In this document: one piece after another, positions 1,640 to 41,816 of the stretch
Numbering within the stretch: position 1 is the stretch's first letter
How the letters are laid out: every line of letters begins with the position of its first letter
Assembly: GCA_964187785.1 (NCBI GenBank)
Contig: OZ076409.1
Span: forward strand, 34,164,001-34,228,000
Origin: Amphiscolops sp. MND2022
Taxonomy: Eukaryota
Direction of reading: 5' to 3'
DNA: 64,000 bases
Made by a program: the position numbers and the translations under genes
Notes under the pieces: generated by a model
The model's input: only the letters and a program-made list of their open reading frames with translations
Told to the model about the DNA's origin: nothing
Database searches by the model: none

Positions 1640-1804
1640 TGTAATCGCAATGTCTAAGCTTGTTGAAAACTAGTATTCGGTGGTAACTATCTTGTGTATT
1701 GTTTCTGACCTTATGGTGATGTTGAATCTTTTGGTTGAAAAAATTGTTCAACGGAGCAGGTATTTTGTCAACACAATGGTTGCTCTTTTATGATCGCTAC
1801 CACA
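1640..1804 (-). repeat. 3' LTR of element A
   Basis: Direct repeat of 5991-6155 with TG...CA ends, adjacent to the PPT. Confidence 0.97.
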
Positions 1805-1814
1805 TTCCCCCGCC
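1805..1814 (-). promoter_or_regulatory. Polypurine tract of element A (GGCGGGGGAA)
   Basis: Purine run on the minus strand immediately before the 3' LTR. Confidence 0.85.
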
Positions 1815-1918
1815 GGCAATTGACGGTTAGGAATTGTTGTTTACACTACAAGTAACAAGAACATAATGTACAAAGTTAATGAAGTAAGCAAGTTAATAAA
1901 ATGTCACTACTAAGAGTT

Positions 1919-5991: not shown

Positions 5992-6155
5992 GTAATCGCG
6001 TTGTCTAAGCTTGTTTAAAAAGAGTATTCGGTGGTAACTATCTTGTGTATTGTTTTAGACCTTATGGTGATGTTGAATCTTTTGGTTGAACAAATTGTTC
6101 AACGGAGCAGGTATTTTGTCAACACAATGGTTGCTCTTTTATGATCGCTACCACA
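5991..6155 (-). repeat. 5' LTR of element A
   Basis: Direct repeat of 1640-1804, followed internally by the PBS. Confidence 0.97.
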
Positions 6156-8520: not shown

Positions 8521-8581
8521 GGGGTTGCACCCTATATCTATATATAGCAACAGCGTCAACGGGTGGGTGTTCATGTAGCCT

Positions 8582-8821
8582 TGTAGACCGTTTAATTGGA
8601 TCATGTTAAATAACATTACAGGTGAAACAACTCATATTGGGTTACATGTATAGCATGTGAAGAGAAAATGGTAAATTGACACAAGGGCCATAATACATGG
8701 CACTTCAAAATTTGCACTATTTATGGAAACCAGCTTCTCATTTGGGAAAGCTTCGGAGGAAAATGGAAAAAGGACTGAGAGTTTACCTCAGTTTCAAGGG
8801 TGAAAATCATCAAAATTTATG
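8582..8821 (-). repeat. Remnant of the 3' LTR of element B
   Basis: About 240-bp direct repeat of 20906-21145. A deletion joins it to the middle of ORF3. Confidence 0.85.
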
Positions 8822-10485: not shown

Positions 10486-13400
10486 ATGGATTCATATTCA
10501 GGAAAGTTTCCGCTTGATTTCATTTCTTTTTGTCTAGACATGACGTCTGAACGACAGATTGAAGCAAATGAACCACAAACTACTGACCCTGCCCTTCTTG
10601 CGCAGGATTTGTCGAGTCGCCAGCACAGTGATAATTTCCAGCTGTTCGAAGAGGACGGAACAGCCCGTCCACTGTCCAACTTGTCTTCGAGTAGCGGTAA
10701 TACCGAAGAGAGCCTTTCCGCGTTCGCGGATCAGACTTTGCGTACCTTGGTCCACTTAGGTCCCAGTTTGGACATCACCATTCTGTCAGCACCAAACGAG
10801 AGTTTCCAGTAAGGAGAGCTTGAGTCTTCAACTAACAAATTCTCAGATTCTGAGGCCCGGACTACTATCCAGCCCAAAATCCAGAAAATTGATACCGAGC
10901 AACAAGTGACTTCCAGGCTGTTTGACCCAAGTACGTTTGACTTACCAGAGGAGCAGCAGAAAAATTATTTTAAAACGGACGCAAGTGAGATAGAAGACGT
11001 ATACGACAGTGCTGGAGCAGACGTGTTGACCGACAGGCCTACTTCCAGTGTTTTGGGATTCGATCCTTTTCCTGCCCCAGATGAGCCTCAGGAAACAATG
11101 AATCATGGCACCAGTAAGCCTCAGGGGCCTCACTCCCACAAAGAACCCGCTTTACCCACAGAATTGTCTGCCAACGGAAGAATCATGCTTCGCAAGTATT
11201 TTGCCCAAAACACTCCTATTGAGCTTCCTAGGGGGCACACAACGGTGGCATTCAGTGAGCCACAGAGTCATGCCATCGTGGAAATCATTTCTGACGAAAC
11301 AGTTAGGTCGTCATTGCACTCCATGCGCTCACTGGTTCTACAGGCAGTCCACGGAGGGAAGGGACAAACTGCAGGACAACTAAGGAAGGCTCTAATTCGA
11401 GGGTGTACTCCCGACAGGGGCATGACTGCTAGTTCTGAGGGAGAATCAGACTGTGAGGGCTACACGACTGATGGCAACACTAGTGGAGCCTACGCGATTG
11501 ATGATAACATGGGAGGGGCGTCTATGAGCCAAGAAGTCGACACCGACTCCAGTACACCTGTCGCAAAATTGTGTGCCGCATCGAGAGGAACAGGCGGAGG
11601 CTCATTCTCAGGACAAACTACTGTCCCTAGTCCTGGATATAGTGAGGACGATTACGAACCTCTGTGTACCATATGTCCTCAAGCTAAGCACCAACAAGTC
11701 AATCTCAGCCCTCCTCGGAAAAGACGGCCGGGCAAGGTGATGAAGCCTGCTTACTTCAAGGGGATTCAAGGACTAAGGTGTTCGTTACCGGCCCGCTGGA
11801 CCCTGACCTTGTGCACAACAAGCACAAGTTCTACTGCCATACATGCAAAACCAATGTATCCATTTTCTCTAAAGGAGCGCGGGCGATCGTCCGCCATTAC
11901 CAGTCCGAGAACCATCTCAGGAAGGACCAACGCTGGCGGTATGAACACTTGGGAAGACTCGATAAAATCACAGGCACCACTGTTCATGCTGTCAGAGGGA
12001 AGGACGGGCACATACTTTCCACGTTCGAGCTGGGAAAGGTGAAGCCACTAATCGAATCAGCGCCCCTCGTCGACATTGGCCCACGTTTCCCCTTCTATGA
12101 AGAGTATATGACCAGTGAAGGAGGATTAGCAAAACCTGAAGATGTCCGCTTAGGGACTCAAGTCGCTCTGATTGGCCGATTTGTCCCTTACTTTGGCGAT
12201 CTTACAATCTTGCAAGGACTATGGAGTGGTGGGCAACTTCACCAATCACCAGGATCTGTTTGGAAATCTCGATTGGAGCTCCACCATACTCACGGTATGT
12301 ACCTTGTTTTGTCCTTGCTAGGGTTTTGACTGAGATAGGGGAGGTCACATAGTAACTTATTTACTAGACACTTGCTTTCAAGTGAGATGGGTTCTTTCAG
12401 GCTATCTTTCATCACGTTTTCTTGCGTGGCATGGAAGACGTGGCTCAATCCGTCAACGTTTCCGGGCTGTACTCTATTGAATTCGAGCCTCAAGGAAGCA
12501 AGGAGAAGGCCTCTTTACGAAACTGGAAGTCAGGGTACCTCATTAAGCTTCAACTACAGCAGTACAGCTTGGCTTCTGATCGCAACTGCAACCAGCTACT
12601 CGTTATAGCATGACTCTTGTCCCTACTGTCCACTACACCTCAAATTGTCTGCATGTCTGGCTGTTCCTCCGACGTCCTCCAAACGGTTGAGCAGTCCGCT
12701 TTGTTGAAGAAGGGCATAAGTTAATGCACAAACGAGACTGTATTTGGACGTATTGACTTCTATACGCAACTCAAGTATTTGCTGTTCTATCTGGCACAAA
12801 GTCTTGACGAGCCCTGGATGACCGAGGCCCCTGAGCTCACCAAAGTAAGATTCATTTTTGCATCAGGGTTTGGTTGTGGTTTCTGTGTCCATATCATAGC
12901 ATTTCTTTTAGGCCATTAGCAATTGGGATTTGCGGCTCCGTTCCATCCCCGCAATATGCTCAGAAATCATAACGAAATGGCAGCCATTTCTGGACCACAT
13001 CACGAGAATTGCGCCTAGCTATGAGACGATTGGAGTTAAAAATAGGGTTGAAGTTTAGTTCAGTAACTAGCTTGAATATTGGCTTGGTCGCAGTGGTCTC
13101 ATGGCCCAAACATTATTGACAACTTCTGTTTTCTTTAGCCTCAGAGTCTGGAGTGGCAGATTATCAGCGATGACTTCTTCCAGGTCAAACTGGAATTTTA
13201 TGGGCGGATCGTATACGACTGTAAGTATCCCCCCAGTTTTTTCGTTTAGAATTATAAGGTTTTTTGAGTATCTATCCGGTCCAAAGGTCCGTAGGTCAAG
13301 GACTTATTGTTGATATCACTGTTTAGACAACGTCTGTTTCGAAAGGAGCTTGGTCGGGCACAGAGACTCTGGGTTTTTTACCTTTGGCCAACTAAACAGC

Positions 13401-14488
13401 TTCATCAGGAAACGCTGCTACCAATCCTTACTTCCCAAGCATCTACCAAAAGAGACTGACTGGACACAGTTACCCGTACTCTGCAATGCCGAACTTCGAC
13501 AATTATCCTCTAGGGATTTCCTTACTCGGTTACGGCTGAAGCAAGATCTAGATGCAGCTTCCACAGCTAAGGTGAAGCGCGATAATAGCGACCCAGAGGG
13601 CCCCATTAATAACAAGGTTGAGCTGGTTGATGGAGTGAAAGAGATATTCGTCGCGAAGGCTAGAACCTATCTCGTTATCCTTCTTGAGAACGTCTTGAAC
13701 CACATCAGTCTGAATGCTAACATCGTGAGAGGAATGGCATGCTTTGACCCAAACGTCCTGTGTCTTCCGATGAAACAAGCCAGCTTTTGCTTCACAGCCC
13801 ATTACCAGAGTTTCAGTCTTTGGGGCTGGTTGGAAGGGTCCCCCAAAACGACTGTCAGGACGAGTATCTAGAGTATGTTGGACATTTTCGTCAAACGTAC
13901 CATACTCTGAAGAAATCCCCCAATGGGTTTTCCGACATGGTCGATTTACTGTCAGCAATGCCTGAGCTTCGCAACCGAGTCCACCTCCATCGACTTTTCC
14001 AATTAAGTTGTATGTGCCTTACTAAGAACACACCTCTGCTCCCTCCCATTCGATTCCATGATGTTGACACTCAGAGACCTAAGTGTAGGTTGGGAGATGT
14101 TCTGTTGCCAGCCCAGTCTTATCTGGCTCGGGTTCTTGAATCCATCTCCATCTCGGTCTGTACAAAGGATGATTCGCTGAGTAAGCTCCGAGAAATAGAG
14201 CGGGAATTCCATACCGGCAAGGTGACTGGTGATCCATGGACTCATGTTGATGTTTTTGGTCGGGCTGACTTCTATAAGACTCTTTGCCAAAAGCACAAAT
14301 CTCTCACGCAGAAGCCCAAGTCAGCGTCTTCTAGTCGTTCCGCCTCTGGTTCCACCTCACCTGTTACTTGCAGTCGTCGGAAAGGATCTCCTGGAAAAGG
14401 GAAGCGGAAGGTAGATTTTGAGTCTAAAGAACAGACAAAGGAGGGCTCTAATTCGCAAGCTCTTGAGCAATCCCCATCTAAATCCTAA
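10486..14488 (+). pseudogene. Antisense spliced BED-finger/hAT-transposase-derived gene of element B
   Basis: Inferred GT-AG introns 12295-12400, 12845-12911, 13047-13138 and 13221-13326. Zinc finger FYCHTCKTNVSIFSKGARAIVRHYQSENH. Colinear with the element C gene. Contains several stops and frameshifts. Confidence 0.85.
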
Positions 14489-14711
14489 ATGTACATAGTG
14501 TACATTTGTGCTCTGTTTGTTTCTTTGTATTTATCGTAAACTTAATCTGAACTTGTTCGATATATTGTTGTACTTCCGCGGCCTTATTTGTACGTCACTG
14601 AGTCTATTTTGTTGTGTTTATTTCATGTCAAAAATTCGTAGTCAGAGTAGTCCCAAGTAAAAATCGTCAGTTAGTCCACGTGACTATCGGGACACTAATT
14701 TACATATCTGG

Positions 14712-20695: not shown

Positions 20696-20905
20696 AAGAG
20701 ATTATTGCAAGAGGTAAGAGTTTAAATTGAGTTCTCAGGCTAGCAAACAAAGTTTTATTCCAATGGGTATTAACGAACTGATTGTGACTATCTCAAGGAA
20801 AATTGTGTTTTCGGGACTACAAGTCCCGGTTATTTATATTCAACACTGCATGACTTCCAAGATATATAGTGTCATCAATCTAACTTTACAACAAGAGATT
20901 TGTTT

Positions 20906-21704
20906 TGTAGGCCGTTTAATTGGATCATGTTAATAACATTACATGTGAAACAACTCGTATTGGGTTACATGTATAGCATGTGAAGAGAAAATAGTAAATT
21001 GACACAAGGGCCATGATACATGGCACTTCATAATTTGCACTATTTATGGAAACCAGCTTCTCGTTTGGGAAAGCTTCAGAGGAAAAGGGGAAAAGGACTG
21101 AAAGTTTACCTCAGTTTCAAGGGTGAACTACAACCAAAATTTATGCGCATCCGTAATAGCAATTTACTACAGGCCTTATGGGCCGCACAAGTTTACTAAT
21201 TGCATTTCTGCATAGTATATTGCATTTCAAAGTGGACTGGTAGTCCCGCTGCCATAGCACCGACAAGATGAATAATATAATTGCTGTACTAAACGGCGTT
21301 GTTCAACAAACATACTGCACTGTGATTGCTTGATATTCTCATGGACTGCTGGTCCAAGGCGACAAGCAAAGGAACATTTGAACACGTTTCCTTTGCCTGT
21401 ACGCTTTGGTGTCCAATTATTAACACAACTAATAACATATTGCACTTTTACATGTGTAAAGCAACGAAATACCAATCTAACATAAATAAATGGACTGAGT
21501 AGAAATAATTTTACATATGGTCCGGGTATTAAAACTAAACAACATCATAATTTGACATAAAAGTAGCGGATTCTAAGCAATAACTTCAAAGTTTGTTGAG
21601 AAATTAGTTTTAATTCAGGGGGAAAGTGCTGGGAAGGTCCCCATGACAGCTGTAGCTTATTGTGTAGAAATTTCCATCGCAGGCGGCAGCCCGCGACAGT
21701 CACA
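20906..21704 (-). repeat. 5' LTR of element B (inner boundary uncertain, may extend to 20783)
   Basis: Begins TGTGAC-TGTCGCGGGCTGCCGCCTGCGATGG on the minus strand and contains the repeat shared with 8582-8821. TATAAATA lies near 20831-20838 and an AGTCACA ends at 20783. Confidence 0.75.
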
Positions 21705-21742
21705 ATGACTAAAGCACAGATTGCAATAACATTACAATTATC

Positions 21743-23858: not shown

Positions 23859-25578
23859 AATTGATGTTTAGGTTTGTTCGTACTTACCATTACATTTACA
23901 GGGGTTGAAGAGAATGTTCACAAGAGAATTAGTTTTATTATCAGGCCTTCTCGGAACAACTAGTTCATACAAAAATCCACGTCTCTGGTTAATTCAGATC
24001 AAAGGTTTAAAGTCAATTATATCAGCTAACACAAAACTAGCTTTTCAATTCGTGTTCTTAGGAATCAAAAATTCTTTCTTTTTGTATTAGGGATTTTTAA
24101 AAATCTGTTCGTTCCCAGTTTATAACAAAAAATACCAAAGTCCAGATGGACAAGATTTTCCACTTCAAGCCCTCACCGTAGTGATAGCGTTTCTCGCGGT
24201 AGACCAAATTTTTAAGGCTCAAAAAAGTAGAGACGAGACCAAAGGCCGCCGTTCAGGGTTTTTCAGCACCATGCGACTTCTTGTCTGTGTTTTCTAACTG
24301 AACCCCCCTTCAATCTTAAGCAGGAAAAAAGTGTTTTGCAAGCATAGAGAGCTTAGGTTGCTTGGTATTGCTACTTTTTTTCAGAATTTTCTTTAACGGA
24401 AGGGCTCCTTTATTATTTTAGGTTGAACAGCAATTCGCGAGCATAGAGAATAAAGCTAGAATAAGTGTCTTTTTAAGTTGTTGATTATTTTCAGGTAGAA
24501 ACACTGTTTTTTTGCTAAATTGTTCACTTTATGGTTTTTCCGCAGTGTGTGGCCTCCATCCCAAATGTTTTCAGTGAGATTTCTGAATTTCTGAACAAAT
24601 TTCTTTGTATACACTTAAGCGAGGCACCGAATTGAGCTGTTCTCAGTTGGACAAACTTACCCTACGTATTACCCTAACATGATTGATGTCTTTCAGGTTT
24701 GACTTCACGTGCCTGAAACTACCGAAATTTCGAGCAAACCCTAGACGAGAAAAAATGCAGACATTGCAAGAATTCTTCGAGGTAGCCATGAAAAAAAAAA
24801 CATTTTGCAAGATTGTGGCAAAAAAATACAAATCTTGCCAGAATCTGACCAAAAGTTGTTTCTTGCAACAATCCTGTAAGTTATTCGCAAGGTTTGCAAC
24901 ACTGGTGAAATGTTTTGCTAGATTTGTATCAATTCACCGCCAAAGTTTCTTTGAACATTTTGAAGTTTTAAGGACTCGACCAAACTGGGTGATAATAGAA
25001 AAACACCTATAATAAGGAATGTTAAAAAACAGCCTGGTAAACTCCAAAACATTTTGATTGAGAATTTTTTTAGGCAAATGTGTCCTGGTCCCTACCGGGA
25101 TACCAAATGAACTTTCCGCCGGTTTGGTAATGGATTTGCTCCAAATAAGAAATTCTGAAAGACAATCAGCCTTCAAAAAATTATTTTGTGCTGAAGCTTC
25201 CTTCGTTTATTTGATAAACGCCAATTTAATTCTTGAAAATTAGAGATAATTTTTTGTTTTGTAAGTTCAATGTGCATCAACATTCCCCAACGAAACAATT
25301 TGACATGTTTTATCCCAATTACTTTCATCAATTTGAGATCTTTCTTTCCAAGTTTCAAAACCGCAACATAGCATAAGGTATTTTCCTCATGAGAGCTCCG
25401 AGCTTGTCCTGGTGTGAAAAGTTTTCCAGTACCCCTTCAGTAGGATGACTTCAGAAAATCGTGCACGAACCATGCAAGAAAACTGCAATGTTAATGCATT
25501 GATGTGATTTTCAATATATGTTGCTATGTTGCGACATTTTCCAGAATGAAAAAGGAATACGATCTAAATTATATGATT

Positions 25579-26900
25579 TGTAACTGTCGCAGGCTGCCGC
25601 CTGTGATGGCACTAAGATCACGACAACAGCGGAAGGGCAAGAGATCGCGACCGGAACCTTACCAATCTACTGAGGAGAAAACATTCAAAATGCAAACTTT
25701 CATATTGTTCCGTTAATTACACTTGTTAATGTTGCTGACTCCATTTATATATATATATATATATGTTTTGCTAGTATTAGTCTGTTAGAGCCAACAACCA
25801 AAAGGCTCAAATGATGTGTAGTTATTTGCAAATTTGGAAACGCAGTACAACAATGCATTTGCAATAATAAATAGAAGCAGCTAACGAGCGTAAAGGAAAC
25901 GAGTTCAAGTAAACGTCACTCCAATTCCGGGGACGTCACTTGAGCTTACTACAATTAGCCAATCACGTGCTGTAATTCTTGCTGTACTATTGTTGTATTT
26001 GTTAATTGGCCGGTTAAGGCCACCTGACGAAATTCCACTCTCATTGCTCACTACTTTGGTCAAACGGCCGGTTCCGGCCGTGAAGCAATAATGAAAAGGA
26101 ACTAACTTATTACATCTGTACTTCATTAGTAATAATACAATTGTTCTTTCATGTTATTTAAATGTTCATTGTTGATAATATGAAGCTTTGTTTGGTATTT
26201 GGCCGAGTAAGGCCCATTGAACTAATATATATTGTTTCAACTGGTACTCTGGTCAAATGGCCGATTGTGGCCATTTCATGCATATTTGTGTTTTGTTGTT
26301 CAGTTAACCAGATATTAACCCGGAACTAGCATAAGTTCATCTCCGAAGCAAATGAAGGTGCTTATGGTATTATATTATCTACGTGATCCAAGCATATGTA
26401 AAATAGACAAATAAGGCCATTTTCCTTCACTTCCCTATTGTGCTGTCTGTACTTACGGATTTAAGCCTATTCCGGTTTCAACATGAAATATATTTTCATG
26501 AATAGTAGATTGATACCACAGCCCTTATGTGCGGTTATACATTCCATTCTCAGTGTAATATATAATAAATCTTGTGTCGGCACGTGCCTCCACCTCACTT
26601 TGCGTGAGGTATGTAAACAAAGGTATTTGTTGACACTTTGATATGCATGCCTTAATCGGCAGTTCGTTTGAAGCTACTATTTTGACTACATGACCCATAA
26701 CTGCCATTCCCTAGATGTCCCCGAAGATATGTGAATATCAGGGTTTTCATCATGGAGCTAATGATCATATGATACTACCAACCTAACTAGTTATGTAAGG
26801 AATGTGATTGTCATTCCCTAAAAGGTATAAATAGTGTTATCCCGTTGGGGAAATCATTAATTCCTTTCATTTTGCTCTAGTTAAGTTTAATCTACAAACG
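25579..26900 (+). repeat. 5' LTR/leader of element C (inner boundary not determinable)
   Basis: Its start is repeated at 41572. TATAAATA at 26826-26833 lies about 130 nt before the gag ATG. Confidence 0.65.
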
Positions 26901-26954
26901 GCACCGCTGTTATTTCCGTATTGATCAATATATTGTTAATTCGGAATCGTTTCT

Positions 26955-28676
26955 ATGCCTACTACTAGAAAACAGAAAAAGGCAAGAAAGTCAAGAGAAG
27001 CAGAAATGCTATCTGACTTTGAGAATTGGGATATTATGCTCGGAGGAAATCACTTTGATAGCAATGAGAGAAATGAAAGTGTGAATAGTAATCAGGCCGG
27101 CAGGCCAGAAAGCTTATTTGGAGGTGAATTTGGAGATGAGAATGAGAATGAGTTCCCAAACCCGGGAAATAATGGACCGAGTCCAAATACCGAATTAGGC
27201 CATAATTCAATCAGAGAGTGTTCAAGTGTTGAAATCAATAGATTGTCGAGTGAGTTAAATTCCCGTATATCTCGAGAGATGGATGAAATGATGAATAGCG
27301 TCAGTGTTCAGATTCAAAGGGCCATAAATGAGGCAATCAGTAGCCAAATTTTGCCTCAAATCCAAAATGCAGTTATGGCCGGGTCGGGACAATTGACCAA
27401 AGAGAGATGGAACGTTCCGGCCGAGAGACCGGAAGGATATTCCGAAATACTGCAAAACTTAGAACCTAGGAACAATTCTAAGAGTAAACAGACCAACGAC
27501 CGTCCCAAAGACGGATTCACAAGCACGAATTCTCGTGCTTACGACATGGTGACAGGAGAAAACGAATCTCCAATCGAAGTTCCTGAGTTTCTCACGGGAC
27601 GAATACCATCCACCAGTCATCTCAACAGATCAAATGATGACCTTCCCCTGCTCGACACGACGATCCCAGCACAAGAGAGAATTGCTACGGCTGCCGACTC
27701 CGATCCCATCACCCGACTGGCAGACGTCTTGACCACAATGCAAAATAGACCGACAGCCCAACAACTCACTATACGCCCAGTCAATTCAAACACAATGACT
27801 TTTGATGGCAAGAGTGAAAAATTCGAGCTGTTTGAGGACCTGTTCCACACGATGATCAAGATGCAACCGGAAATGACGGAACAGATGAAAATAAATCACT
27901 TCCACTCACTGCTGAGGAAGAATGCTCTCCAAACCTTCCGGAACATCAGCTCGAGCAATAGACAGACTTTAGAGGACGTATTGGTAATATTCAGACGAAA
28001 ATACGTCAAACCCGAATCACAGGCGACTGCCAAACATAAATGGCACCGTCTAGTCTTCGATCCCAACACGATGAAACTGCCAGATTTCCTTGAAGAATTA
28101 AATCAAGGGGCAGAAAAAGCATTCGGGGATCACGCGCAGAAAATGATTGACAGTTTGCTCTACGCAAAACTGCCACCAAAACTGAAGCGGTCTGTAAACA
28201 TAGCCAGACTCGAAAACGGCTCTTATGACGAAATAGTTGCTCATTTAGAGAGAGAGTTAGAACTAAATGCCCTCGAGGAATCAGACGATCTACCAATGGC
28301 CACAATGACCTCCTCGACAACAAAACCCAAGACTCCTCTAACTACTGGGCAAATGTCTGATATCACTTGCAACTATTGCAAGGAGAAGGGCCATTTGGTC
28401 AAAGACTGTGAAAAATTGAAGAAGAAAAAGGAAAAAGATGCCCAACAAGGCAAACAAACTCAGAAAAAGACGTATCCGGAGTGTGGCACTTGTGGTAAAA
28501 AGAACCACCCGGAAGAAAGATGTTGGCAAGGTGCTGGTGCGCATTTCAAACCCAAACGCACCAGACCAGATGACGCTAATGACGGTAAACCCAATTCAAA
28601 GGCACAGAAACCACAAAACAAATCAACATCTTCCAACTCACAGGCCTCATCTTCCAATGATGAGTCAAAAAACTAA
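26955..28676 (+). CDS. gag: Gag of element C (573 aa)
   Basis: Open ORF with capsid-like FDGKSEKFELFEDLF region and two CCHC knuckles (CNYCKEKGHLVKDC, CGTCGKKNHPEERC). Confidence 0.95.
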   Translation: MPTTRKQKKARKSREAEMLSDFENWDIMLGGNHFDSNERNESVNSNQAGRPESLFGGEFGDENENEFPNPGNNGPSPNTELGHNSIRECSSVEINRLSSELNSRISREMDEMMNSVSVQIQRAINEAISSQILPQIQNAVMAGSGQLTKERWNVPAERPEGYSEILQNLEPRNNSKSKQTNDRPKDGFTSTNSRAYDMVTGENESPIEVPEFLTGRIPSTSHLNRSNDDLPLLDTTIPAQERIATAADSDPITRLADVLTTMQNRPTAQQLTIRPVNSNTMTFDGKSEKFELFEDLFHTMIKMQPEMTEQMKINHFHSLLRKNALQTFRNISSSNRQTLEDVLVIFRRKYVKPESQATAKHKWHRLVFDPNTMKLPDFLEELNQGAEKAFGDHAQKMIDSLLYAKLPPKLKRSVNIARLENGSYDEIVAHLERELELNALEESDDLPMATMTSSTTKPKTPLTTGQMSDITCNYCKEKGHLVKDCEKLKKKKEKDAQQGKQTQKKTYPECGTCGKKNHPEERCWQGAGAHFKPKRTRPDDANDGKPNSKAQKPQNKSTSSNSQASSSNDESKN

Positions 28677-31148
28677 CTTCGCCACGACTCCAATACAATC
28701 AACTAATATCCGTCCGTCAATACATCAGGTCGGATCCTCCAACAAAAACTTTTCATCAATATACACAACAATTGATGGGCTATCCCTCTGTTGTCTGGCA
28801 GCAACAGATGGAAAAAGCTACCATCATCACCTACAATAACACCCATTTATTCCAGAAACCAATTCCTGTTTGGGACCCTGATTATACTACTACCTTCACT
28901 ACCCGATTCAGGCCTATTCCCCTGGTTGACAATTACAACCCTACCTACATAGATCCAGACTACGGCAGAGACCCCTATTGGGACACAGAAATCTACAACC
29001 AGGAACAACTACAATTCCAATATGTCTTAGACGACATCGAGCACTATAATAGAACGGTCCACGAGAACCCTCCAATCACCCACAATAAAAAGACCAGAGC
29101 ACTAGTTGAAAACTGGCAAATGAATGATGGCACCAACCATCCAGTGTTCCCAAACCCATTAGGGACCGAGACCCATGAAGACGTTGCTCAACCAATACCA
29201 CAATCACTATTAGACGAGAAGCAGTTCCAGAATGTCTTAATCACCAGGGACGGTGAACCAGACTGTATACCACTGTCAACCAACATCAATCTCAAATGCA
29301 AAAAACGCATGTTGTACTTCCCCATGGACTTTGGGGAATTGACCATAGACGGACTTATTGACACTGGAGCGCTGTCCAGTGCAATTCCTGAAATGGACCT
29401 CCGGAAAATTCGACTTCTATCTCCACAATCTGTCATCCGGGAAGGTCCGCCTCCAAATTTCCAAATAATGGTTGCTAATGGGCAATTGGAAACTCCTAAG
29501 AGTACCATAGAGCTCAAATTTGAAGTTGGTGACATTGAGTTTCATGAGAGTTTTATAGTCATGGAACACCTGACAGGTCAAACCCGAATCACAGGCGACT
29601 GCCAAACATAAATGGCACCGTCTAGTCTTCGATCCCAACACGATGAAACTGCCAGATTTCCTTGAAGAATTAAATCAAGGGGCAGAAAAAGCATTCGGGG
29701 ATCACGCGCAGAAAATGATTGACAGTTTGCTCTACGCAAAACTGCCACCAAAACTGAAGCGGTCTGTAAACATGGCCAGACTCGAAAACGGCTCTTATGA
29801 CGAAATAGTTGCTCATTTAGAGAGAGAGTTAGAACTAAATGCCCTTGAGGAATCACACGACCTACCAATGGCCACAATGACCTCCTCGACAACAAAACCC
29901 AAGACTCCTCTAACTACTGGGCAAATGTCTGATATCACTTGCAACTATTGCAAGGAGAAGGGCCATTTGGTCAAAGACTGTGAAAAATTGAAGAAGAAAA
30001 AGGAAAAAGATGCCCAACAAGGCAAACAAACTCAGAAAAAGACGTATCCGGAGTGTGGCACTTGTGGTAAAAAGAACCACCCGGAAGAAAGATGTTGGCA
30101 AGGTGCTGGTGCGCATCTCAAACCCAAACGCACCAGACCAGATGACGCTAATGACGGTAAACCCAATTCAAAGGCGCAGAAACCACAAAACAAATCAACA
30201 TCTTCCAACTCACAGGCCTCATCTTCCAATGATGAGTCAAAAAACTAACTTCGCCACGACTCCAATACAATCAACTAATATCCGTCCGTCAATACATCAG
30301 GTCGGATCCTCCAACAAAAACTTTTCATCAATATACACAACAATTGATGGGCTATCCCTCTGTTGTCTGGCAGCAACAGATGGAAAAAGCTACCATCATC
30401 ACCTACAATAACACCCATTTATTCCAGAAACCAATTCCTGTTTGGGACCCTGATTATACTACTACCTTCACTACCCGATTCAGGCCTATTCCCCTGGTTG
30501 ACAATTACAACCCTACCTACATAGATCCAGACTACGGCAGAGACCCCTATTGGGACACAGAAATCTACAACCAGGAACAACTACAATTCCAATATGTCTT
30601 AGACGACATCGAGCACTATAATAGAACGGTCCACGAGAACCCTCCAATCACCCACAATAAAAAGACCAGAGCACTAGTTGAAAACTGGCAAATGAATGAT
30701 GGCACCAACCATCCAGTGTTCCCAAACCCATTAGGGACCGAGACCCATGAAGACGTTGCTCAACCAATACCACAATCACTATTAGACGAGAAGCAGTTCC
30801 AGAATGTCTTAATCACCAGGGACGGTGAACCAGACTGTATACCACTGTCAACCAACATCAATCTCAAATGCAAAAAACGCATGTTGTACTTCCCCATGGA
30901 CTTTGGGGAATTGACCATAGACGGACTTATTGACACTGGAGCGCTGTCCAGTGCAATTCCTGAAATGGACCTCCGGAAAATTCGACTTCTATCTCCACAA
31001 TCTGTCATCCGGGAAGGTCCGCCTCCAAATTTCCAAATAATGGTTGCTAATGGGCAATTGGAAACTCCTAAGAGTACCATAGAGCTCAAATTTGAAGTTG
31101 GTGACATTGAGTTTCATGAGATTTTTATAGTCATGGAACACCTGACAG
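28005..31148 (+). repeat. 1572-bp tandem duplication (gag 3' half to protease)
   Basis: 28005-29576 is repeated at 29577-31148, with GTC microhomology at the junction and at least 7 substitutions. Confidence 0.95.
28667..28673 (+). promoter_or_regulatory. -1 ribosomal frameshift heptamer A AAA AAC (second copy at 30239-30245)
   Basis: Directly precedes the gag TAA. The -1 frame (KKLTSPRLQYNQLISVRQY...) is open into pol. Confidence 0.88.
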
Positions 31149-34100
31149 GTCCAATTATCGGCCTAATGTTCCTTCAACGAAATCATACAGTCCTGGACAT
31201 GAGACAAGGAATACTGAACTTCCCGTTCTTCTCAATGCAGCTCAAAACAGCTGACCATAAATACTCAAATGTCTTAGAACCAATTCTCAATCCCATTGAG
31301 ATAACCATTCCGCCAAATGATAGAGTCCTAATTAGGACCAATTCCCTACTGTACCCTGAGAATGCTGTCACTGGAATTTTACAACCGAGCGACCTTCTAC
31401 ATGAAGAAGGCGACATCACATTCTGCCCAGCCTTGGTCACTCTGAATGACGGCAATATATCGATACCAGTGAGCAACTTCACAGACCACCCTTATAAACT
31501 CAAAAAGGGACTACATATTGCCAATTTCTCTGTCATGACGCCAGAACAAATGAAGTATGTCAAACCGGTAGACCCGGCATCAACCTGGCACCTTTTGCAG
31601 AATGACCAGGAGCAAGCAGCCCATTATGTCAGCAGTCTCATCAAAACCAATAGAAATCCACAAAACTCCGAAAATTATTGGTTCCCAACTCCAGAAAACC
31701 CTGGAAATCCTGAGGAACACACACCCATACAAAAACAAATCCTAAGCGAGTTACAGGCCTTACAGGACCTGGAGACACTCGACCCCACCACAGACGCAGA
31801 ATCGCGTGCAAAATTCTTAGAAAACTTTGACTGGAAAGATTCCACCCTTACTCCTGAAGAGAAGGAGAAAATTGAGGAATTGTTAGTGGAATTCCATGAC
31901 ATCTTTGCACGACACCGATTTGATATAGGCATGAACGAGGAATTCAAAGTGAAACTGACACCTAAGGACGATTCCCCAGCCTATAGTCAAAGCCTTCCAG
32001 CTCCTATCAATCTGAAGGAGGACATCCTAGTCGAATTAGTCATGTTGCACAAATATGGCATAATAACCACACTGCCGTTCTCAAAGTATGCAAGCCCAAT
32101 ATTCGCCCAAAAGAAACCAAATGGGAAGCTACGACTTTTGGTTGACTTGAGAAAAATCAATAACCTCATCTCGGATGATTATAAAAACAATAATCACCCT
32201 GTTAGCACCCTGGTTGATGCTGCCCAACACTTGGCAGGCAAAAAACTGTTCTGTAAATTAGACTGTTCGCAGGCATATCACTGCCTACCAATGGCCGACC
32301 AACGCTCAATCGAAATGTTGGCTTTCAATTTTGCCAGTCGTACATTAGCGTACAGACGCTTGGCACAAGGCCTTAGTCGGTCACTATCCGCATTCTCGAG
32401 TTTCATGAGGGAATACCTCGACAAAGTCATTAAAGCGGATCAGTGCGCCCAGTATGTGGACGATATCGGCATCGCAGCCAATGATGTTGACCACCTCATA
32501 ATGAACCTGAGAGCAACATTCAAATGCATTCAGGAAGCAGGCCTTAAGTTGACAATGCACAAATGTCACTTTGGTGCAAAAGAATTGATTTTCTCGGACG
32601 GACTATTACCCCACAAGGCGTCAAACCCCAGAAACAGAACGTGCAAAACTTTCTGGAAAAGACCAAATTCCCAAAGTCGAAAAAGGCTTTGCAGCGCTAC
32701 TTGGGATTCTTGAACTACTACAGGAATTATGTCCCAAGACTCTCCGAACGCCTTGCTCCATTCTACAAGATGCTCAAAAGTGACGAAAAGGTCCTAGTAT
32801 CGAAAGAATTAGTCCAACAATTCGAAGAAATCAAAAAAGCACTCGACAAATGTTGCGATTTAGCCCTACAACAGCCTATCCCGAACAAACAAATCGCACT
32901 AATGACTGATGCAAGTTTTGGTGCAGCTGGATATGCGGTCTTAAAAGAAGACGATCCAAACCAGAAATTCACATCTCTCCGAAAACCCTACGCACCGGTG
33001 GCCTATGGATCAAAAACCTTCACCCCAGCCCAGATCAAAATGTCAGTATATGCCAAGGAATTTCTGGCAATTTACTTTGCATTCAAAGAATTTGGACATA
33101 TATTCTGGGGTGCGCCCAAACCGGTCATTATCCTTACCGACAACAAAGCCACTACGAGATTTTTCCAAACGAAAATAATACCCCCAGCCCTGTGGAATGC
33201 ATGCGATTATGTGATTCAATTCAATTTTGTCATAGCACATATCCCGGGAGCACAGAACACAGCAGCTGACTATTTGTCCCGATTGGAGGCAGATCCGAAG
33301 GATAAATTAGTCATGAAAATCCGTGAAGACGTGCAAACTTTACCCATTGAGATAAATGTTCAATCTGCGGGGGTATCACAGGAAGAACAAATATTCTATA
33401 CGAATGATGATGACGAGACAGAGGAACAGTATTGGGCAAGAAAAGAAGCAATCAGGAAAAATCCAATGACTGATGAGCCCACTGTTACCATAGAAACTCT
33501 GTCAACCAATCTGGTCAAACAACAACCAGACATCCAAGTCCGATTAAAGAAAACAAACCAGATAATCATCGAGCAGTCCAAAGATGCAGTATTGCAACAA
33601 TTGAAGGCAAAGCTCCTTCATGAAGACTATTCAGAAAACATACTGCAACAGGATGCCCGATATAGACACTATGCAAATAATCTGGAACGAATTGTACTCA
33701 AGGACGAAATCCTGACGAGGCAATATTTTGATGAAACAGGGAATGTTAAATACCATCAAATTTTGCTCCCGCAACACCTACTTCGGGAATTGCTCCACTC
33801 CCTTCACGGGACAGCGCATAAACATCCCGGGATTTCAAAAATGTTGCAGGAAATCAGACAAAGGTATTACTACCCTAGCATGGCTAAACACGTCAAAAAG
33901 TGGGTAGAAGGGTGTGAACAATGTGCCAGAGACAAGAGAGTCCCTAACGCAACGATCACACCTGAGCTGCTCAACTTGCCCGAATGGGACCTTGGACCTG
34001 AAGACGCCATGCAGATTGACCTATTGCCGAATCTTCCCCCAAGTGGAGGGTATGAAAATGTCCTAACGGCAATTGATGTTTTCTCCAGATATTTATTCGC

Positions 34101-35448
34101 TTATCCCCTTACAGACGCATCAGCGATCAATGTGGCAAAAGCGCTCATTGACATAATGACCAAGCATGCATATCTGCCAACGACTCTTATTACTGATAAG
34201 GGTACTGCATTCACTTCTACGATTATTGCGGAGGTTACGCAAATTTTGGGCATTACACTCAAATGTGCAACGACAAAGCACCCGCAAACAATCGGGAAAT
34301 TAGAGCGGACCCATGCCTCATTAAAGACAAATCTCAAAATGGCATGTGGGGAATACCGCCGACAATGGCATAAATATTTGCCATTAGCAGTACTTAATCA
34401 TAATACGAGTTATCATGCCAGTATTGGTTGTGAGCCAACGAGAGTATTCCATGGCAGAATTCCCTATAACATTCTGGATCACAAGCTTGGAAATAATCCA
34501 AACGAAAAGATCAACCCTACAACCGAATTTGCAGAAGAAATCCAAAACCGGACAAAAATCCTAATTGACAAAACGAAGCAGAACATTATGCAGTCGTACA
34601 TCAAGTACAAAGAATATTACGACGGCAAAGCAAAAGCTGCTCCATTGAAGGAGAATGACTACTGTTTCGTCTTACAGCCGAAAGCGAATCATCAAGGATC
34701 AAAAATTCCATTCCGCGATTACCGTTGGGTTGGACCATTTGTAGTCCAAAAGGTTTTGCCAAATGAAAACTACATAGTACGAAGGATCAATACGAACAAA
34801 ACTCAAATTTTGCATCGCATTCGCCTTAAAAGGTTTATTCCCAATCAACCGCTTGAGGACAATTTCCGAGAACAACGTCTGCAGCCAGACGAAGAAATTG
34901 TCATTCCGCAAGACGACCTATACGTCATAGCGTGGGAAACAGATTTTGGAGAGCAGCTAGTTACACGAGACAGCGAGACTATTCCGACTAGCGTGCCGAA
35001 TGGCGAACAGCCGAACACGGCGGAAACGAATGCAAATGACGGAGACGAGACCGAAGCGGATTACATAATCACGCGAGAAGAATTAAACAACGACAACGCG
35101 GCACACAGCCGGAATAAACGCTTAGATGATGACGTCACTGAAAGAAATAAAGCTACTGCAGTGACAGAAAATACCAAATCTGATTGGCCGAATCCGGCCG
35201 TTTCCCCAAAAAACCAAGAAAATTCTTTGCCGAGTACGGCAGGTGGACCGGAAAATGATGAAATTTTTTCAGAAAGAAATTCAATGAATGAAAACGATGC
35301 ACAAAACTCTCCCAAAAGGGGGGATGATATTATCGTGCCCGAAATATCTGAAAATGATGCTAGAAATGAAAGTCTGAGCCCTAGAGGAGGGAAATATAAC
35401 CTCAGGCCTAACCCTAACCCAAACTACTCAGAAGACTTTAGATACTAA
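30239..35448 (+). CDS. pol: Pol of element C (PR, dUTPase-like spacer, RT, RNase H, integrase), one frameshift near 32583
   Basis: LIDTGA; YVDD; TDASFGAAG; H-H-C-C; IDLL...IDVFSRY...TDKGTAF...GKLERTH; WVGPF. The 1-nt loss in an A run may be a mutation or a sequencing error. Confidence 0.95.
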
Positions 35449-35673
35449 AGAATTGAATTTTCCCGACAGTGGGAGTTCTTTTCTTCTATCTTTTTTATTT
35501 CCTTTGACCACTCAAGTGTTTTTTTTCAATAAATAATTGGGGCATTACAAACGATCCCTCGCAAGGAAAATAAATACGGGATCAAGAAACCAAGAACAAC
35601 AAGATGAAACAAATAATACAAACAGAAATGAACAAAGTTTACAGTCTGAAAGTACATAAATACATATGTACAT

Positions 35674-38600
35674 TTAGTCTTTAGAGGACCCTTGAACGGC
35701 TTTCTTGGATGCAGACGAAATTGTAGAACTGCTACTACCTGCTCGTTTCCTCTGCTTCTTGGAAGGCACCTTTACAGCTGAATCATCAGGGATGGACGAG
35801 GCGGTATCCTTTTCTATCCGGACAGAACGAGTAGAAGGAACAGCAGTAACGGCCTTATAGGAAGTGAGAAGACTCTTGTAGATCTTAGACCTACCAAACT
35901 CATCCACAAGGGTCCAAGGATCATAGTCAGCAGGGAAAGCAGAACGCTCGAAAGAGGAACTGAGAACTGAGAACTTCTCTAAATTGTCATCCGAGCAGCA
36001 ATGAGAAATGGAATTGGGCACACAGGAAAGGTAACTCTGGCAAGGCACCACTAGATCGGCAAAACGGCCCTGACACCCCGTTGTGTCAACACTCCCGAAC
36101 AGTACTGGGGGATATTGGGGGCTAACACTAGTCAGACACAAGCAGCAGAGTTTGAACAGATAGAACAGGTGCTCATGAGTTTGGAAAAACTCAAGCCCCA
36201 TTAAAAAGTCTATAAGATCGACGGAATTCTCCATTAGATCGAAATCTGGAGGATAGTTGACCCGGAGGTAGTCCAACAGAGCCAGATATTCGTCTCGACA
36301 ACTGTTCTCGTTGGCACTAGTGACCCATGATCGAAGCTGGAAAGTAGAATATAGCACATCGAAGTGCCGGAGCCCGACCTCAGAAGGCCTTTTGAAAAGC
36401 ACGAAGGGATCAAAAGCAGCCAACCCCTTTATCACTTCAGAGCTCAGACCAGCTTGACTAAGGACTTGCTTGACTAGATACTGAATGAATTGCAACGCCT
36501 CTTTGACAAAGCTGCTGGTCGTCTCTGCAACCGTCTTCTCGATAGCAGCCTTCTCCGATTTCTTGTTCAGGTGTGTGACTTCTGCACTCTGTTTACTAGC
36601 TGTAGCTATCCGGTTTGTGAGACGGTGCCGGATAAGGAAGTCTTCCTCACTCATGAATTTGCCCTCGCTCACCTTAAACCCGAGAAGGAGGAACCACGAG
36701 TTCTCGAGGGGAATAGTTTCTGGCAAATAACATCGGGCGCACAGTTTTGAAACAAAGCGGCAAACCTCCCCACAGAGGAAGAACGAAGCATCACGGCGAC
36801 CCCGCAGATTGATGGCGAAACTGGTAACGTCTGAAATACAACAGTCGTGATTATGAGAGGAATAGGATATACAAACGAGACAATGTTGATAGTGATTCAA
36901 CAACTCAAGGAATTAAATTATCAGAACGATGTCTTAGTGCACTGACGTGAAATGAAACCGTATACTCACAATCGCCAATTATACGTTGGAAGAATTCCAA
37001 TTTAGCAACGAAGAAGAAGTCACAGATGATGGACCACTCGAAGCTTTGGACCTGATTGTGGACTCCTTGCATTCCTTGGTGAGGGGTGTGCGTAGTCAAG
37101 TACTGTCTGATTGCCTTCCAATTCTTCACAAGTTCTCGGCAAAGACTGGGGAGGCTTGGCAAATCTAATTTGCAGGTGTCGATGGCCTTAAATGAACCAA
37201 ATTGTCTCTCAAATGCACCTACCTTCAAACCTCTAACTACATGAGTGAACTTAATATACTTACTCTTCCCAGATCAGGAGATTCCAGAACCCAGTCCTCA
37301 CCAGTAGCAGCTCCCAATGAAACGATCAGGCACTTTAGGACAGAGAAGAAGTCGATCCGTCCAAATACGCTGTAGGTGGGCTTGTGCATCATCTTCTGAA
37401 GCTGCAGCTGCTCAAAACGAAAGCAACTCTGCACTGCTCGGGGAAAGAACTCATTGTGATCTATGGTTTGGATCAGCTCTACAGGACATCCTGAACAGGC
37501 GACGATATCGGCTTTGGTTGAAACCACAGATAGTAGTCTGGATATCGAACCCAAGTCTCCAGTCAGATCAGCGGAGGGAAGCCCACTTCGGCACACAAAG
37601 ACGCGACAAAGAGAATCGCCTTTCCAGAACTTGATGGACATGAGCCTATTCACGCCCACATTCTCAAATTCGATAGCGAAGCATTGGGTGGTAGCAATTT
37701 GCTCTGCTAATTCACTCATGGCACAATTGAAAATGTGTTGGAAGACGGCCTAAAGAAGAAAAAGACAATTATGAAATGTGTAGGGAATCTATACCCTCCC
37801 TGAGTAAATGTTAGCCTGAAAGGGAACTTACCGAGATCCGTTCTTCCCCCCAATCAAAGTCGCAATATCTAGTTTGATAGTTCGTCAGAGATCCTATCTG
37901 AGCCCACAGTCTGCGGAGTACTCCAAGATCACCGTGGGTTTGCACGAAGTCTCCAACGAGGTGTATTTGTGTCTTGACCCTCGATGCAGGAGTGACGAGT
38001 GTGGTTGACGTCCCTTTCACGAAGTCATCATAGAATGGGAAGCGTTCTCCGATGTCTATTAGTTCGACGTGTATAAATTTGGGGAGTTCTTTCGCCAGCT
38101 CAATCTTAGTGAGGATCTTGCCGTTCCGCCCTCTGACCCGATGCTGCACTTTCCCAGTCACTGGATCAACGCTTTTGAGGTGCTCATAGCGCAACCTTTG
38201 ATCACGCCTGAGGTGTTTTTCGGTCCTGTGGTGACGCAGAATCTCCAGTGTGCCCTTAGTTTTTACAGAAATATTCTTCTTACATATATGGCACCACACC
38301 ATATAAGGATTATGAAGGGGATCAGCTGGCCCGGAGATGAACGATCGGGTCCAGCCAATTTTGGAGAAGAATTCCTCCTTCATTGGAATGCCCCGTGTGT
38401 GGCCGCGCCGTTTCTTCTTGGGCAATTTGCTAGAGCTCGAAGCTAGAGGCTGTGCTGGGGCCGTCTGGGTGCGTAATTCAGAGAGCGTGGCATCGAGACT
38501 GGATTGATCGGTGGATTCAAAACCTGCTTGGGTAGGGTCAGCTCGAGAAGGTGGAACGCGGCTGAAAGGTTCCTTGAAAGCCTGTGAGATGAGTGCCATC

Positions 38601-39836
38601 TCGCCAGAACTGTCTGTATCATTGAAAGACTCTAACCCTCTACTCTCTTGGCCAGCACTGGATCCTTCAGAGGTGTCAGTCCCTGATCCAGAACAGTATT
38701 CAGCCCGCGAACTATCTTCCGAATCACTTTGCAGCCCTGGGCCGGGAGTTTGAGCCCTTGGCCGGATCTTGAAGTGGTCAGTTCGGGCACTGGAAGTGAC
38801 GGGAGCCCCTCTAACCGCTCCGATTACCATCTGCTCCATGGTGGAGTAGGACATTTTCAAGGTCTCGTCTGTAAGGACCCTCAGAAGATGATAGATTTGT
38901 GGCTCCGTGAACGCCACAGTTCTATGACCAAGCGGGAAGGTGATAGTACTGGCATCATCATCGAAATACTGTTTCAAAATGGCCCTACTACGGCCAGAAA
39001 GCTCCCTGATCTTGGGGTCCTGAGCTGCTGAAGTGGAAGGACGCATGGGATCAGGCATCGCAGCGAAAGTATCAGTTGACGACCCTTCTACTGCTGTGTC
39101 TGCTACATTACCTATTGGAAGGTAGGCATACAATTGAGGAGCACTAGCCTGACTGGATGTGTCGCCGGCTTCTTCAGTTCCAGTCTCATCGCCCAACCAC
39201 CTGACTTTTGGTGTTCCTGTTGGCAGCTTGGGGACATCACATAGGGAAGAGCTTTCGTCCGTTTCAATCTGGAGAAATGAAGCTGCGGACATTTCGGCAG
39301 GAGTCACGTTAGTGGGCAACAATTCCGGTAATATAGTCCTCGAGGAAGGAGCAATCGTTAGCCCAGTCTCTAACTGAGTCAAATTGAGCTCGTCGGTTTC
39401 ACCGGCTACGCCTGAAGTTGGGGTACTAGTACGAAAGACCGGTGCAGTAACCCGTGCTTCGACCCCCGGAAGAAGGACCCTCAGGTATACCTCTCTCAGT
39501 CTCTTGTTCTCTTCTCTCAGAGTTCTCCGCAGTATGTCCCTCTGATTGCTGTTGGGCCTGTTCAAGGAGCTGGAGCTTTTCGTCGGCATAAGATGTTACA
39601 TCAACGTTGCTGTCTGTGCTGCTGGGAGACCTTGGTGGCCTGATTGGAGGAAAAGGAGGAGGAGACAATTGTGGTCTTCGGACGGTAGAGGAAGTACCCA
39701 CAGAAACAATCGTTTGAGTATGTTGGTCGGGAATGTCCGCTGCAGAGTTAGTTTGTGTTTGCAGTTCGTCTCCTGGCTGGTTTGCTAAGCAAAAGGAGAT
39801 GAAATTTGGCGGTGAGCTTCCTTGAAAAAAATCCAT
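35674..39836 (-). CDS. Antisense spliced gene of element C: BED-type zinc finger plus inactive hAT-transposase-like protein (about 1205 aa from ATG 39589)
   Basis: Exons 39589-37832, 37749-37264, 37186-36970 and 36830-35674 join in frame through GTAAGT/GTGAGT...AG introns. The conserved start (MDFFQG..FISFCL, 39836) is in another frame. The hAT call rests on motif pattern. Confidence 0.85.
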
Positions 39837-40871
39837 TTTACCGCATTAGAAAACTTCCGGAAGTGTTTGAAAATCTGAACGAAACGTGTTATCACGCGTT
39901 TACTAATGGAAACAGGAAGCATGTTGTGAACGGATTTAACTCTGATCAAGTTAAATTTTAGTTCGGAATAAAAACAAACCAACCTTCAGATGAAGACAAC
40001 CTGGGACTGAATTGGATGTGGGAACGAGTCCTTGTCCGGCTGTAGAAGGTGATGGATGTGGCCGAAACCGGCTGGAGAAGGGGGATCAAGGGTTGCTCTG
40101 GGATGAAGAATCGGCTAAGAAGTGTCGTGTGCGGGGAAATAAGTATCAGTCGAGAAGAGACAAATGGAAGATAATCAGAATTAAAATGGAATTGAAATTG
40201 GGTAGAAGAATTGAAGAAATTGGAAAGTTGGAGTTCGTGGTTGAAGATTATTACCAGACTAATATTATGGATTATCTACATATTTATTCTGTACATGGAG
40301 TCTGCCAGCGAAGTGTACAATGGACTTTGTTATTTACAGCTTATTTAGTTAAAGGGCCGGTTATGGCCGTTTGCCCTGTTTTGTTTCGCCGTTTTGTCAA
40401 GTTACCCTTAGTTAGAATTTTCGCCATCTTGGATTATTTAGATTTATTATTTTCGCCATTTTTATTATTTAATTTTACAGTTTATCGAAGCTTAACGCTG
40501 ATTGGTTGAAGCCATTTTGAAAGAATTCCGCGTCGCATGTCGTTAATTGCTATCAGGCAAACTGTTAATTACCCACTTGAAACGGGTGAAGATAATATTT
40601 ACGACTCAAGCGTCATTAACACCTCTCAGGGTGATGGTGCTGATGGGGGGTAAACACTGAGCTATCAAAGGATGCCGACTACTTATAAAATTCCATTCAG
40701 AGATATTTACGTCGGATCAGGGTAATTCACCGGTAACTCAACCACCGAATATGAATTGCCGGGAAAAGGCCCGACTTGGCCAAATTCTTGAGTTGGTGAA
40801 TTCATTCCACTTTGAAACTTCAAGCAAACTAGTCGACTCCCCTGCTCAGCAAGATTGCGAAAAAACTAATA

Positions 40872-41616
40872 ATGCAAAGATATAACTTAACCAAGAAGCT
40901 CTTCGACTTTGAAGAAGAGGATTCAGAAAAATCAGCAAATTCGATAATCTACATATCCAGCGACAGTGAGAATGAGGCTTCAAGCGATTGGGACTCAGAC
41001 TGGTCTACTGATACGGAGGCTATAATAGACAGGATCGAACGGGAAGTTAAAGCGGCACCAATTCCTATTGCCGGACGGGGGATGACAATAGAAAGCTCAG
41101 ATGACGAAATGGCGGCAGGACCCAGCTACATTCAGTCTGTTCCGCCTTCTACCCCGAAATTGGGATTTGAGTACTTCAACAGAGAAATGTGTCTAGCGCC
41201 GTCCAAAAGGCAGAAGAAGACGAGGGTTGAGCTCTGCACTACTGTTTTGCCTGTTTTGGAATCTCCATTATCTCCTCCCGACCACGAGAGGGGACCAAGT
41301 ATTGATACCCCTCCTGTACAGTCGACCTCAGGGACCTTCTACGCCTCGTACCATGTGCAGAATATCAAGCCTTACCAGGACGTCAGCGAAAGTCTACACA
41401 CGGGCTGTATGGTATGTGGTAAATCGAGAGAGCAGATAAAAGAGGAAAAGATCAACTGGTATATGGAGAGATCGACGCCCAAGAGTGAACCAGCCTATAT
41501 CACCGCATTGCGACGAGAAGCATACTCTAATGGCTTAAATGCAGGTAGTCTACTTTTCCTATCACCCGCAGTGTCGCAGGCTGCCGCCTGTGATGGCACT
41601 AAGATCACGACAACAG
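40872..41616 (+). CDS. Accessory sense ORF3 of element C, unknown function; predicted 262 aa ending inside the LTR
   Basis: Open into the gap. The 5' LTR copy supplies ...TTAEGQEIATGTLPIY* (stop at 25671-25673). Has an acidic N-terminus and CMVC, and a homolog in element B. Confidence 0.85.
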
Positions 41617-41816
41617 NNNNNNNNNNNNNNNNNNNNNNNNNNNNNNNNNNNNNNNNNNNNNNNNNNNNNNNNNNNNNNNNNNNNNNNNNNNNNNNNNNNN
41701 NNNNNNNNNNNNNNNNNNNNNNNNNNNNNNNNNNNNNNNNNNNNNNNNNNNNNNNNNNNNNNNNNNNNNNNNNNNNNNNNNNNNNNNNNNNNNNNNNNNN
41801 NNNNNNNNNNNNNNNN
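41617..41816. other. Assembly gap (200 N)
   Basis: Run of N starting 45 nt into the 3' LTR. Confidence 1.

Follow-up and report, generated by a model that had tools for sequence, protein, structure and literature searches.

A matching TTGTRAC flank before two gypsy-like elements of a family without an adjoining polypurine tract

The two elements and their surroundings

The window, meaning the whole stretch of 64,000 nucleotides that was analysed, carries two related long elements, C on the plus strand and B on the minus strand, whose features are collected in Table 1. C is a retrovirus-like (Ty3/gypsy-like) element of about 16 kb. Its Pfam matches are RVT_1, RT_RNaseH, Integrase_H2C2 and rve, together with zf-CCHC and gag-asp_proteas, both below the cut-off. 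A 1.57-kb tandem duplication (28005..31154, plus strand, 99.5% identity) spans the end of gag and the start of pol, and is either real or an artefact of assembly. Searches for the function of ORF3 returned no Pfam family and atlas scores that were all below 0.9.

The 45 bases that recur before the assembly gap in C are taken as the start of a long repeat, because the C-termini of sibling ORF3 proteins match the translated C 5' copy. In the nearest ORF3 cluster, all 11 motif-bearing members among the 15 listed match this translation at 12 or more of 14 residues, and the sibling P0130 matches repeat nucleotides 171-227 at 18 of 19 residues. The 5' repeat probably continues past the TATA-like box at 26826, and no repeat sequence resumes downstream of the gap. 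Between the TATA-like box and gag there is one TGG each in C and B, and neither looks like a primer-binding site (PBS) on inspection by eye. The sole TGG of C precedes the inferred start site, and no PBS-like TGG follows that site.

The repeats of B and C are identical at 23 of their first 25 nucleotides and only loosely alike beyond (226 of 324 aligned bases, with a score of 3 where the best of 30 shuffles reached -21). The TATA-like box of B lies 143 nt upstream of gag. The remnant of the B 3' repeat is joined through a deletion to the middle of ORF3 and stops before the position equivalent to the TATA box; the first 553 nt of this repeat are deleted, its start included, and the end of the remnant is read as a truncation. 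It had been proposed from the sequence that neither far end could be read, owing to a gap in C and decay in B. The far ends are indeed not readable in the window (gap in C, truncation in B), whereas decay alone does not describe the B 3' repeat, since a 242-bp piece survives.

Table 1. Positions of the features of elements C and B in the window
Feature	Position	Strand	Remarks
C left flank TTGTAAC, candidate target site	25578..25584	+	absent from C 3' copy
Candidate 5-bp target-site duplication (TSD) GTAAC in C flank	25580-25584	+	
Hairpin at C repeat start	25584..25609	+	11 pairs, 4-nt loop; 10 pairs lie within the repeat and one involves the flank C
C 5' direct repeat, start	25585..25811	+	45 nt matched by its own 3' copy; at least 227 nt by sibling 3' copies
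TATA-like box of C	26826..26832	+	129 nt upstream of gag ATG; putative promoter
gag with CCHC zinc knuckle	26955..28676	+	
pol: protease, RT, one RNase H, integrase with GPF motif	30236..35448	+	two frames, break near 32600-32700
Antisense multi-exon gene	35674..39595	-	BED-like zinc-finger pattern; common to C and B
ORF3, no Pfam family	40872..41616	+	crosses into 3' repeat start; about 262 aa in siblings
Pyrimidine-rich stretch before C 3' repeat	41555..41571	+	no polypurine tract
C 3' repeat, start	41572..41616	+	45/45 identical to 5' copy
Assembly gap of 200 N	41617..41816	.	directly after C 3' copy
B left flank TTGTGAC, candidate TSD GTGAC	21699..21705	-	
B 5' repeat	20905..21698	-	at least 794 nt
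GTCACA, reverse complement of B hexamer	20783-20788	-	88 nt upstream of B gag ATG; no counterpart in C
B 3' repeat remnant	8581..8821	-	242 bp, 93% to 21145-20905; cut on both sides

Element A (1635-6160), an LTR element of ordinary type, has 165-bp repeats of the form TGT...ACA and a clean 5-bp duplication, GTTGG. Past the gap, broken ORF pieces at 42032-42686 look similar to Polinton-associated genes, and the exons at 51050-52310 (minus strand) look like those of what we take to be a UDP-glycosyltransferase host gene. An array of units of about 184 bp occupies 55750-57630.

The flank shared by the two left ends

The initial annotation described a hexamer outside the repeat at the left end of both elements, and its observations are confirmed here. 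TGTAAC (25579-25584, plus strand) directly abuts the C repeat start TGTCGCAGG at 25585, TGTGAC (21704-21699, minus strand) directly abuts the B repeat start TGTCGCGGG at 21698, and CCGCAG, not the hexamer, precedes the C 3' copy (41572-41616). The match extends one base further than the hexamer, to TTGTRAC, so that six of seven positions are alike (TTGTAAC in C, TTGTGAC in B). For two random flanks, the chance of a 6/7 match is 0.0020 by composition and 0.0025 by sampling (500,000 random pairs from non-element window sequence), and that of a 5/6 match is 0.006-0.008; these figures concern a single comparison of the C and B left flanks (n = 2), in which the pattern was spotted after the fact. 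Since B and C represent separate families (68% identity in an RT piece, about 70% in pol DNA) and their flanks are unrelated further out, they are independent insertions. Judged from these two flanks, the shared sequence is real and unlikely to be a coincidence. The two explanations first offered for it, a target preference or a terminus that the two repeats do not share, are both still live.

TTGTRAC is moderately likely to be host DNA, reflecting an integrase target preference with a 5-bp GTNAC duplication. In this scheme, a gypsy-type integrase, of which C encodes an example, would prefer palindromic targets of the type TT-GTNAC-AA, or a less strict version of that sequence. A 5-base staggered cut would leave GTNAC on both sides, and the element proper would begin with TGTCGC. 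This reading is favoured because the sole differing base among positions -7 to -1 lies at -3, where a 5-bp site has its centre, with GT..AC present in both flanks. Target motifs of Drosophila elements are described as palindromic, extending up to 3 bp past the TSD and carrying the least information in the middle when the TSD has an odd length (PMC3276498, available text). Precedents for the motif itself also favour a target preference: the available texts give GTWAC for HIV-1 (PMC2857682) and CTNAC for roo (PMC3276498), and GT(A/T)AC is said to resemble targets of the Drosophila Copia group (PMC5408687).

The composition of the element points in the same direction. The candidate LTR span, C 25585-26955, contains neither TGTAAC nor GTTACA, and TGTAAC is absent from the whole sense strand of C 25585-41616. 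The repeat, as far as it is sequenced, thus offers no template for the hexamer, and a target preference needs none. It is further favoured because the repeat start itself reads TGT and the sibling 3' copies match the C 5' copy. The 8-bp duplications of hAT-type elements have the motif nTnnnnAn, which both flanks also fit, but this motif explains two positions as against four for GTNAC and was rejected.

Several observations weigh against a target preference. A duplication is seen at no copy, both right ends being unreadable, and two near-perfect flank matches mean that the preference must be strong. In the available text of PMC5408687, strong target specificity is called exclusive to errantiviruses and their derivatives, and the weakness of the HIV motif likewise counts against this reading. 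TGTRAC fits published attachment motifs better than TGTCGC does, and standard end formation cannot be assumed, because the polypurine tract is missing and no PBS was recognised. A Bayesian sketch in which all inputs were guessed gave the target preference 0.97, 0.74 or 0.42 for a rival prior of 0.0005, 0.005 or 0.02, respectively. If the preference is genuine, a TG-ended gypsy-like family integrates with strong sequence specificity at GTNAC, and a property that the available text of PMC5408687 confines to errantiviruses extends beyond them. Such a case would help to show how integrases choose their targets and would aid the correct annotation of element ends.

Further left flanks were sought in sequence collections and among predicted proteins. 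The 25-nt core of the repeat start had no match in viral_contigs or genome_contigs and one in metagenome_contigs, the contig L001, which holds an internal junction only; a looser repeat-start pattern matched nothing. A 19-nt pattern matched one 158-kb viral contig, judged a chance hit with no homology to ORF3, and protein-based locus scans found no relatives. Predicted proteins crossing the left junction were found neither in the antisense frame nor in the open sense frame, and the one hit among representatives was unrelated and repetitive. None of 432 ORF3 proteins matches the minus strand of the 5' regions. Regarding empty sites, the B and C flanks have no informative copy in the window, and a short repeat family near the B flank stops before the junction.

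Formation of the left end

The initial annotation overlooked that there is no polypurine tract at the repeat boundary and that a conserved hairpin lies at the repeat start. The sequence before the C 3' repeat reads TATCACCCGCAG, so the polypurine tract of Ty3/gypsy elements is absent here. Relatives of ORF3 form 166 clusters, some with more than 100 members (120 listed, all from ENA assemblies), from which 432 proteins were sampled: 26 clusters contributed no more than 15 listed members apiece, and the 120 listed representatives were added. The repeat-start motif is present in 362 of the 432, preceded by Val in 359 of these 362, which sets the base before TG as G. Pro-Ala-Val stands directly before the motif in 347 of 363 occurrences, and because its codons fix C at -7, -6 and -3, a polypurine tract against the repeat is impossible in these copies. 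That the course of ORF3 across the repeat start leaves no room for a polypurine tract is a new and, as judged from these proteins, well-supported conclusion, better supported than the reading of the flank. In the family as sampled, the left end accordingly could not stem from a purine-tract primer adjoining the repeat, and neither reading explains how it is set.

The contig L001 (1-850, minus strand) contains a distant ORF3 relative with the 25-nt core exact, but with GAGGGGAC before it; as the contig was found through an exact pattern, its core match is a selected one. It carries a short GAGGGGA before its 3' copy, so loss of the purine tract may be confined to the lineage represented in the window. 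The little-mutated sibling P0342 is the only one of the 432 ORF3 proteins with the repeat start in an unusual place; it starts with M-SQAAACDG and then continues in the middle of ORF3. If this is a left junction, and if the gene caller is restricted to ATG, GTG and TTG starts (assumed), P0342 weakly suggests a base other than C at -1. The protein is explained equally well by a tandem duplication of local origin that begins at the internal GTG. Among 13 shortened proteins mapped on C codons there was no CTG start.

The first 25 nt of the repeat fold into a hairpin in three copies, C, B and L001, and its G-U pairs favour the sense strand. With the preceding base included, sense-strand energies are -16.2 (C), -17.4 (B) and -18.1 (L001) kcal/mol, while the antisense energies are -10.5, -11.2 and -15.9 kcal/mol, respectively. 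Shuffled sequences folded as well in 4 of 200 cases for the C left junction, in none of 200 for the B left junction, and in 34 of 200 for a 57-nt stretch at the C internal junction. Between the B and C hairpins, changes fall on one side of a pair only, with no two-sided change that would indicate covariation, and Rfam matched neither element, with no ribozyme or known RNA. Under the target preference, the sense-strand hairpin would set the left end in place of the polypurine tract: it may guide the RNase H cut that yields the plus-strand primer, or it may mark the point to which a longer end is trimmed. Because the polypurine tract is absent and a hairpin lies at the repeat start, standard end formation is doubtful under both readings. 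The same two features keep an unusual end-forming mechanism possible. Whichever reading holds, the elements belong to a large family without a polypurine tract and with a hairpin at the repeat tip, a natural test case for plus-strand priming that is free of a purine tract.

An alternative, which is unlikely, holds TGTRAC to be the true left end of the element, rebuilt in each cycle outside the direct repeat. By one possible route, a short minus-strand-start DNA, the complement of a right end reading ...GTYACA, would be reused as plus-strand primer at the hairpin; it would replace the polypurine tract and give rise to a 6-bp terminal inverted repeat. TGTRAC does resemble integrase attachment motifs, given as TGTNANR for rGmr1, TGTYANR for Sushi and TGTNATRT for Mag C in Table 3 of PMC3601003, as far as that source is available. 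The impossibility of a polypurine tract in the 347 occurrences invites another priming route, the last C of the hexamer adds a C-G pair to the hairpin in both B and C, and GAC stands before the 3' copy in L001. The leader of B, between TATA box and gag, also contains GTCACA, the exact complement of the B hexamer, although such a match is expected by chance in roughly 5% of cases in 200 nt (an estimate). Neither GTGAC nor GTCAC occurs within 2.4 kb after the B 3' remnant, and the absence of GTCAC speaks against a true terminus. In C, the candidate LTR without GTTACA or TGTAAC means that extra unique sequence would have to be hidden in the gap. Furthermore, a true terminus does not predict the GT-N-AC symmetry, P0342 weakly hints at a base other than C at -1, and no precedent was found in the literature searched. 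It is improbable that this is an abundant animal gypsy-like family in which a hairpin stands in for the polypurine tract and a TGTRAC left end is built outside the repeat, for example by translocation of primer-linked right-end DNA. If it were so, the two LTRs would be built to be unlike each other, an outcome beyond the reach of standard retroviral reverse transcription, and this would amount to a new way of making integrase ends.

Several other schemes were rejected. That the ends are permuted because an LTR-LTR circle was cut off-centre is not supported, as the C LTR span has no TGTAAC and the internal TGTAAC of B lies 65 nt inside the 3' remnant. Splicing from a purine tract and hexamer located upstream conflicts with the lack of TGTAAC on the C sense strand. 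A mirror PBS replacing the purine tract does not agree with the minus strand beside the 3' repeat, which does not begin with TGG, and for self-priming the leaders have no conserved complement of the repeat start.

Coincidence, with two flanks alike by chance and no target preference, is distinctly improbable: only two flanks are compared and the pattern was noticed post hoc, but the 6/7 match, at about 0.002, falls at the sole position where a match is meaningful and takes the form of a palindromic site. Least probable is that AC is an unremoved 5' overhang of element DNA, or that the insertions went into other elements, 6 bp inward of TGTNAC termini. For an overhang, the L001 3' copy reads GAGGGG-AC-TG, like a purine tract with a 2-base extension, which is the retroviral arrangement; the G before TG set by the Val codon in nearly all motif-bearing siblings leaves AC without a template. 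For a nested insertion, TGTNA is listed as a common LTR start (PMC3601003, available text), but nothing upstream of either hexamer is recognised as the end of an element.

Relation to known elements

Likeness to Ty3/gypsy elements (Metaviridae) is seen in a gag with a CCHC knuckle, the order PR-RT-RH-IN, the GPF motif, TG-starting direct repeats and a single RNase H with its acidic residues in place. The two direct repeats expected of this group are present, shown in C by the 45 identical nucleotides, in B by the 242 nt at 93% and in siblings by tails that reach nucleotide 227. Of the TG...CA termini that mark the group, the left one, which alone is readable, is TG under either reading. The group's target-site duplication of 4-6 bp would be sought at right ends that are lost to the gap in C and to truncation in B. 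In contrast to that group, no polypurine tract and no PBS were found here, a hairpin lies at the repeat tip, a third ORF crosses into the repeat, a spliced antisense gene is present, and the length is about 16 kb. As the polypurine-tract feature is lacking and the RT was compared only pairwise, the elements are called a gypsy-like variant rather than a canonical member. The RT (window 31949-32680) had foamy virus as its best match among solved structures, at E 1e-12 against 7e-07 for Ty3 in pairwise scores. An ORF overlapping the 3' repeat recalls bel of foamy viruses or nef of HIV.

HIV-1 (GTWAC) and Drosophila roo (CTNAC), each with a 5-bp site, combine, in the sources as available, the core motif and stagger proposed here for C and B. 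Their motifs are weak or low in information, whereas two near-perfect matches out of two would imply a much stronger preference. Strong palindromic target specificity within the gypsy group is described for the errantiviruses gypsy, ZAM and Idefix (PMC3276498, PMC5408687, available text). These differ in their 4-bp TSD, in their TATA, CGCG or ATAT motifs and in their non-TG termini, and no env-like gene was recognised in the present elements.

Troyka, an LTR lineage of aquatic animals that also has unusual ends, is characterised by CG..CG termini, a 3-bp TSD, LTRs of 100-400 bp and no GPF/Y motif (PMC12440569, available text). Membership is rejected, as the repeat here starts with TG and the integrase has WVGPF. 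In Odin retrotransposons and lokiretroviruses, a tether is accompanied by a second RNase H (PMC9040795, PMC7947760, available text); here there is one RNase H (TDAS, KEFL, TDNK, AADY), and Pfam shows no other ahead of the integrase. DIRS, PAT and Ngaro elements, which have split repeats and a tyrosine recombinase in place of a DDE integrase, are likewise set aside, given the rve integrase and no tyrosine recombinase family among the 9 proteins scanned. The literature searched, which lay outside Repbase, most subscription journals and supplements such as the Troyka element lists, described neither the present family nor any gypsy element whose terminal hexamer is not repeated.

The antisense gene, which in B lies at about 10540-14490 on the plus strand, has GT-AG introns at about 37822-37750 and from about 37265 in C. 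An atlas search gave a weak lead to hAT-dimerisation/FAM200 (scores 0.89-0.90, low shared-feature counts). Its antisense orientation would let the gene keep its introns through reverse transcription. Upstream of ORF3, both elements have conserved non-coding blocks of 13, 12, 12 and 11 nt, at 40228-40583 in C and 9945-9634 in B, and these blocks suggest that a promoter lies inside the element, in the interval that separates the antisense gene from ORF3.
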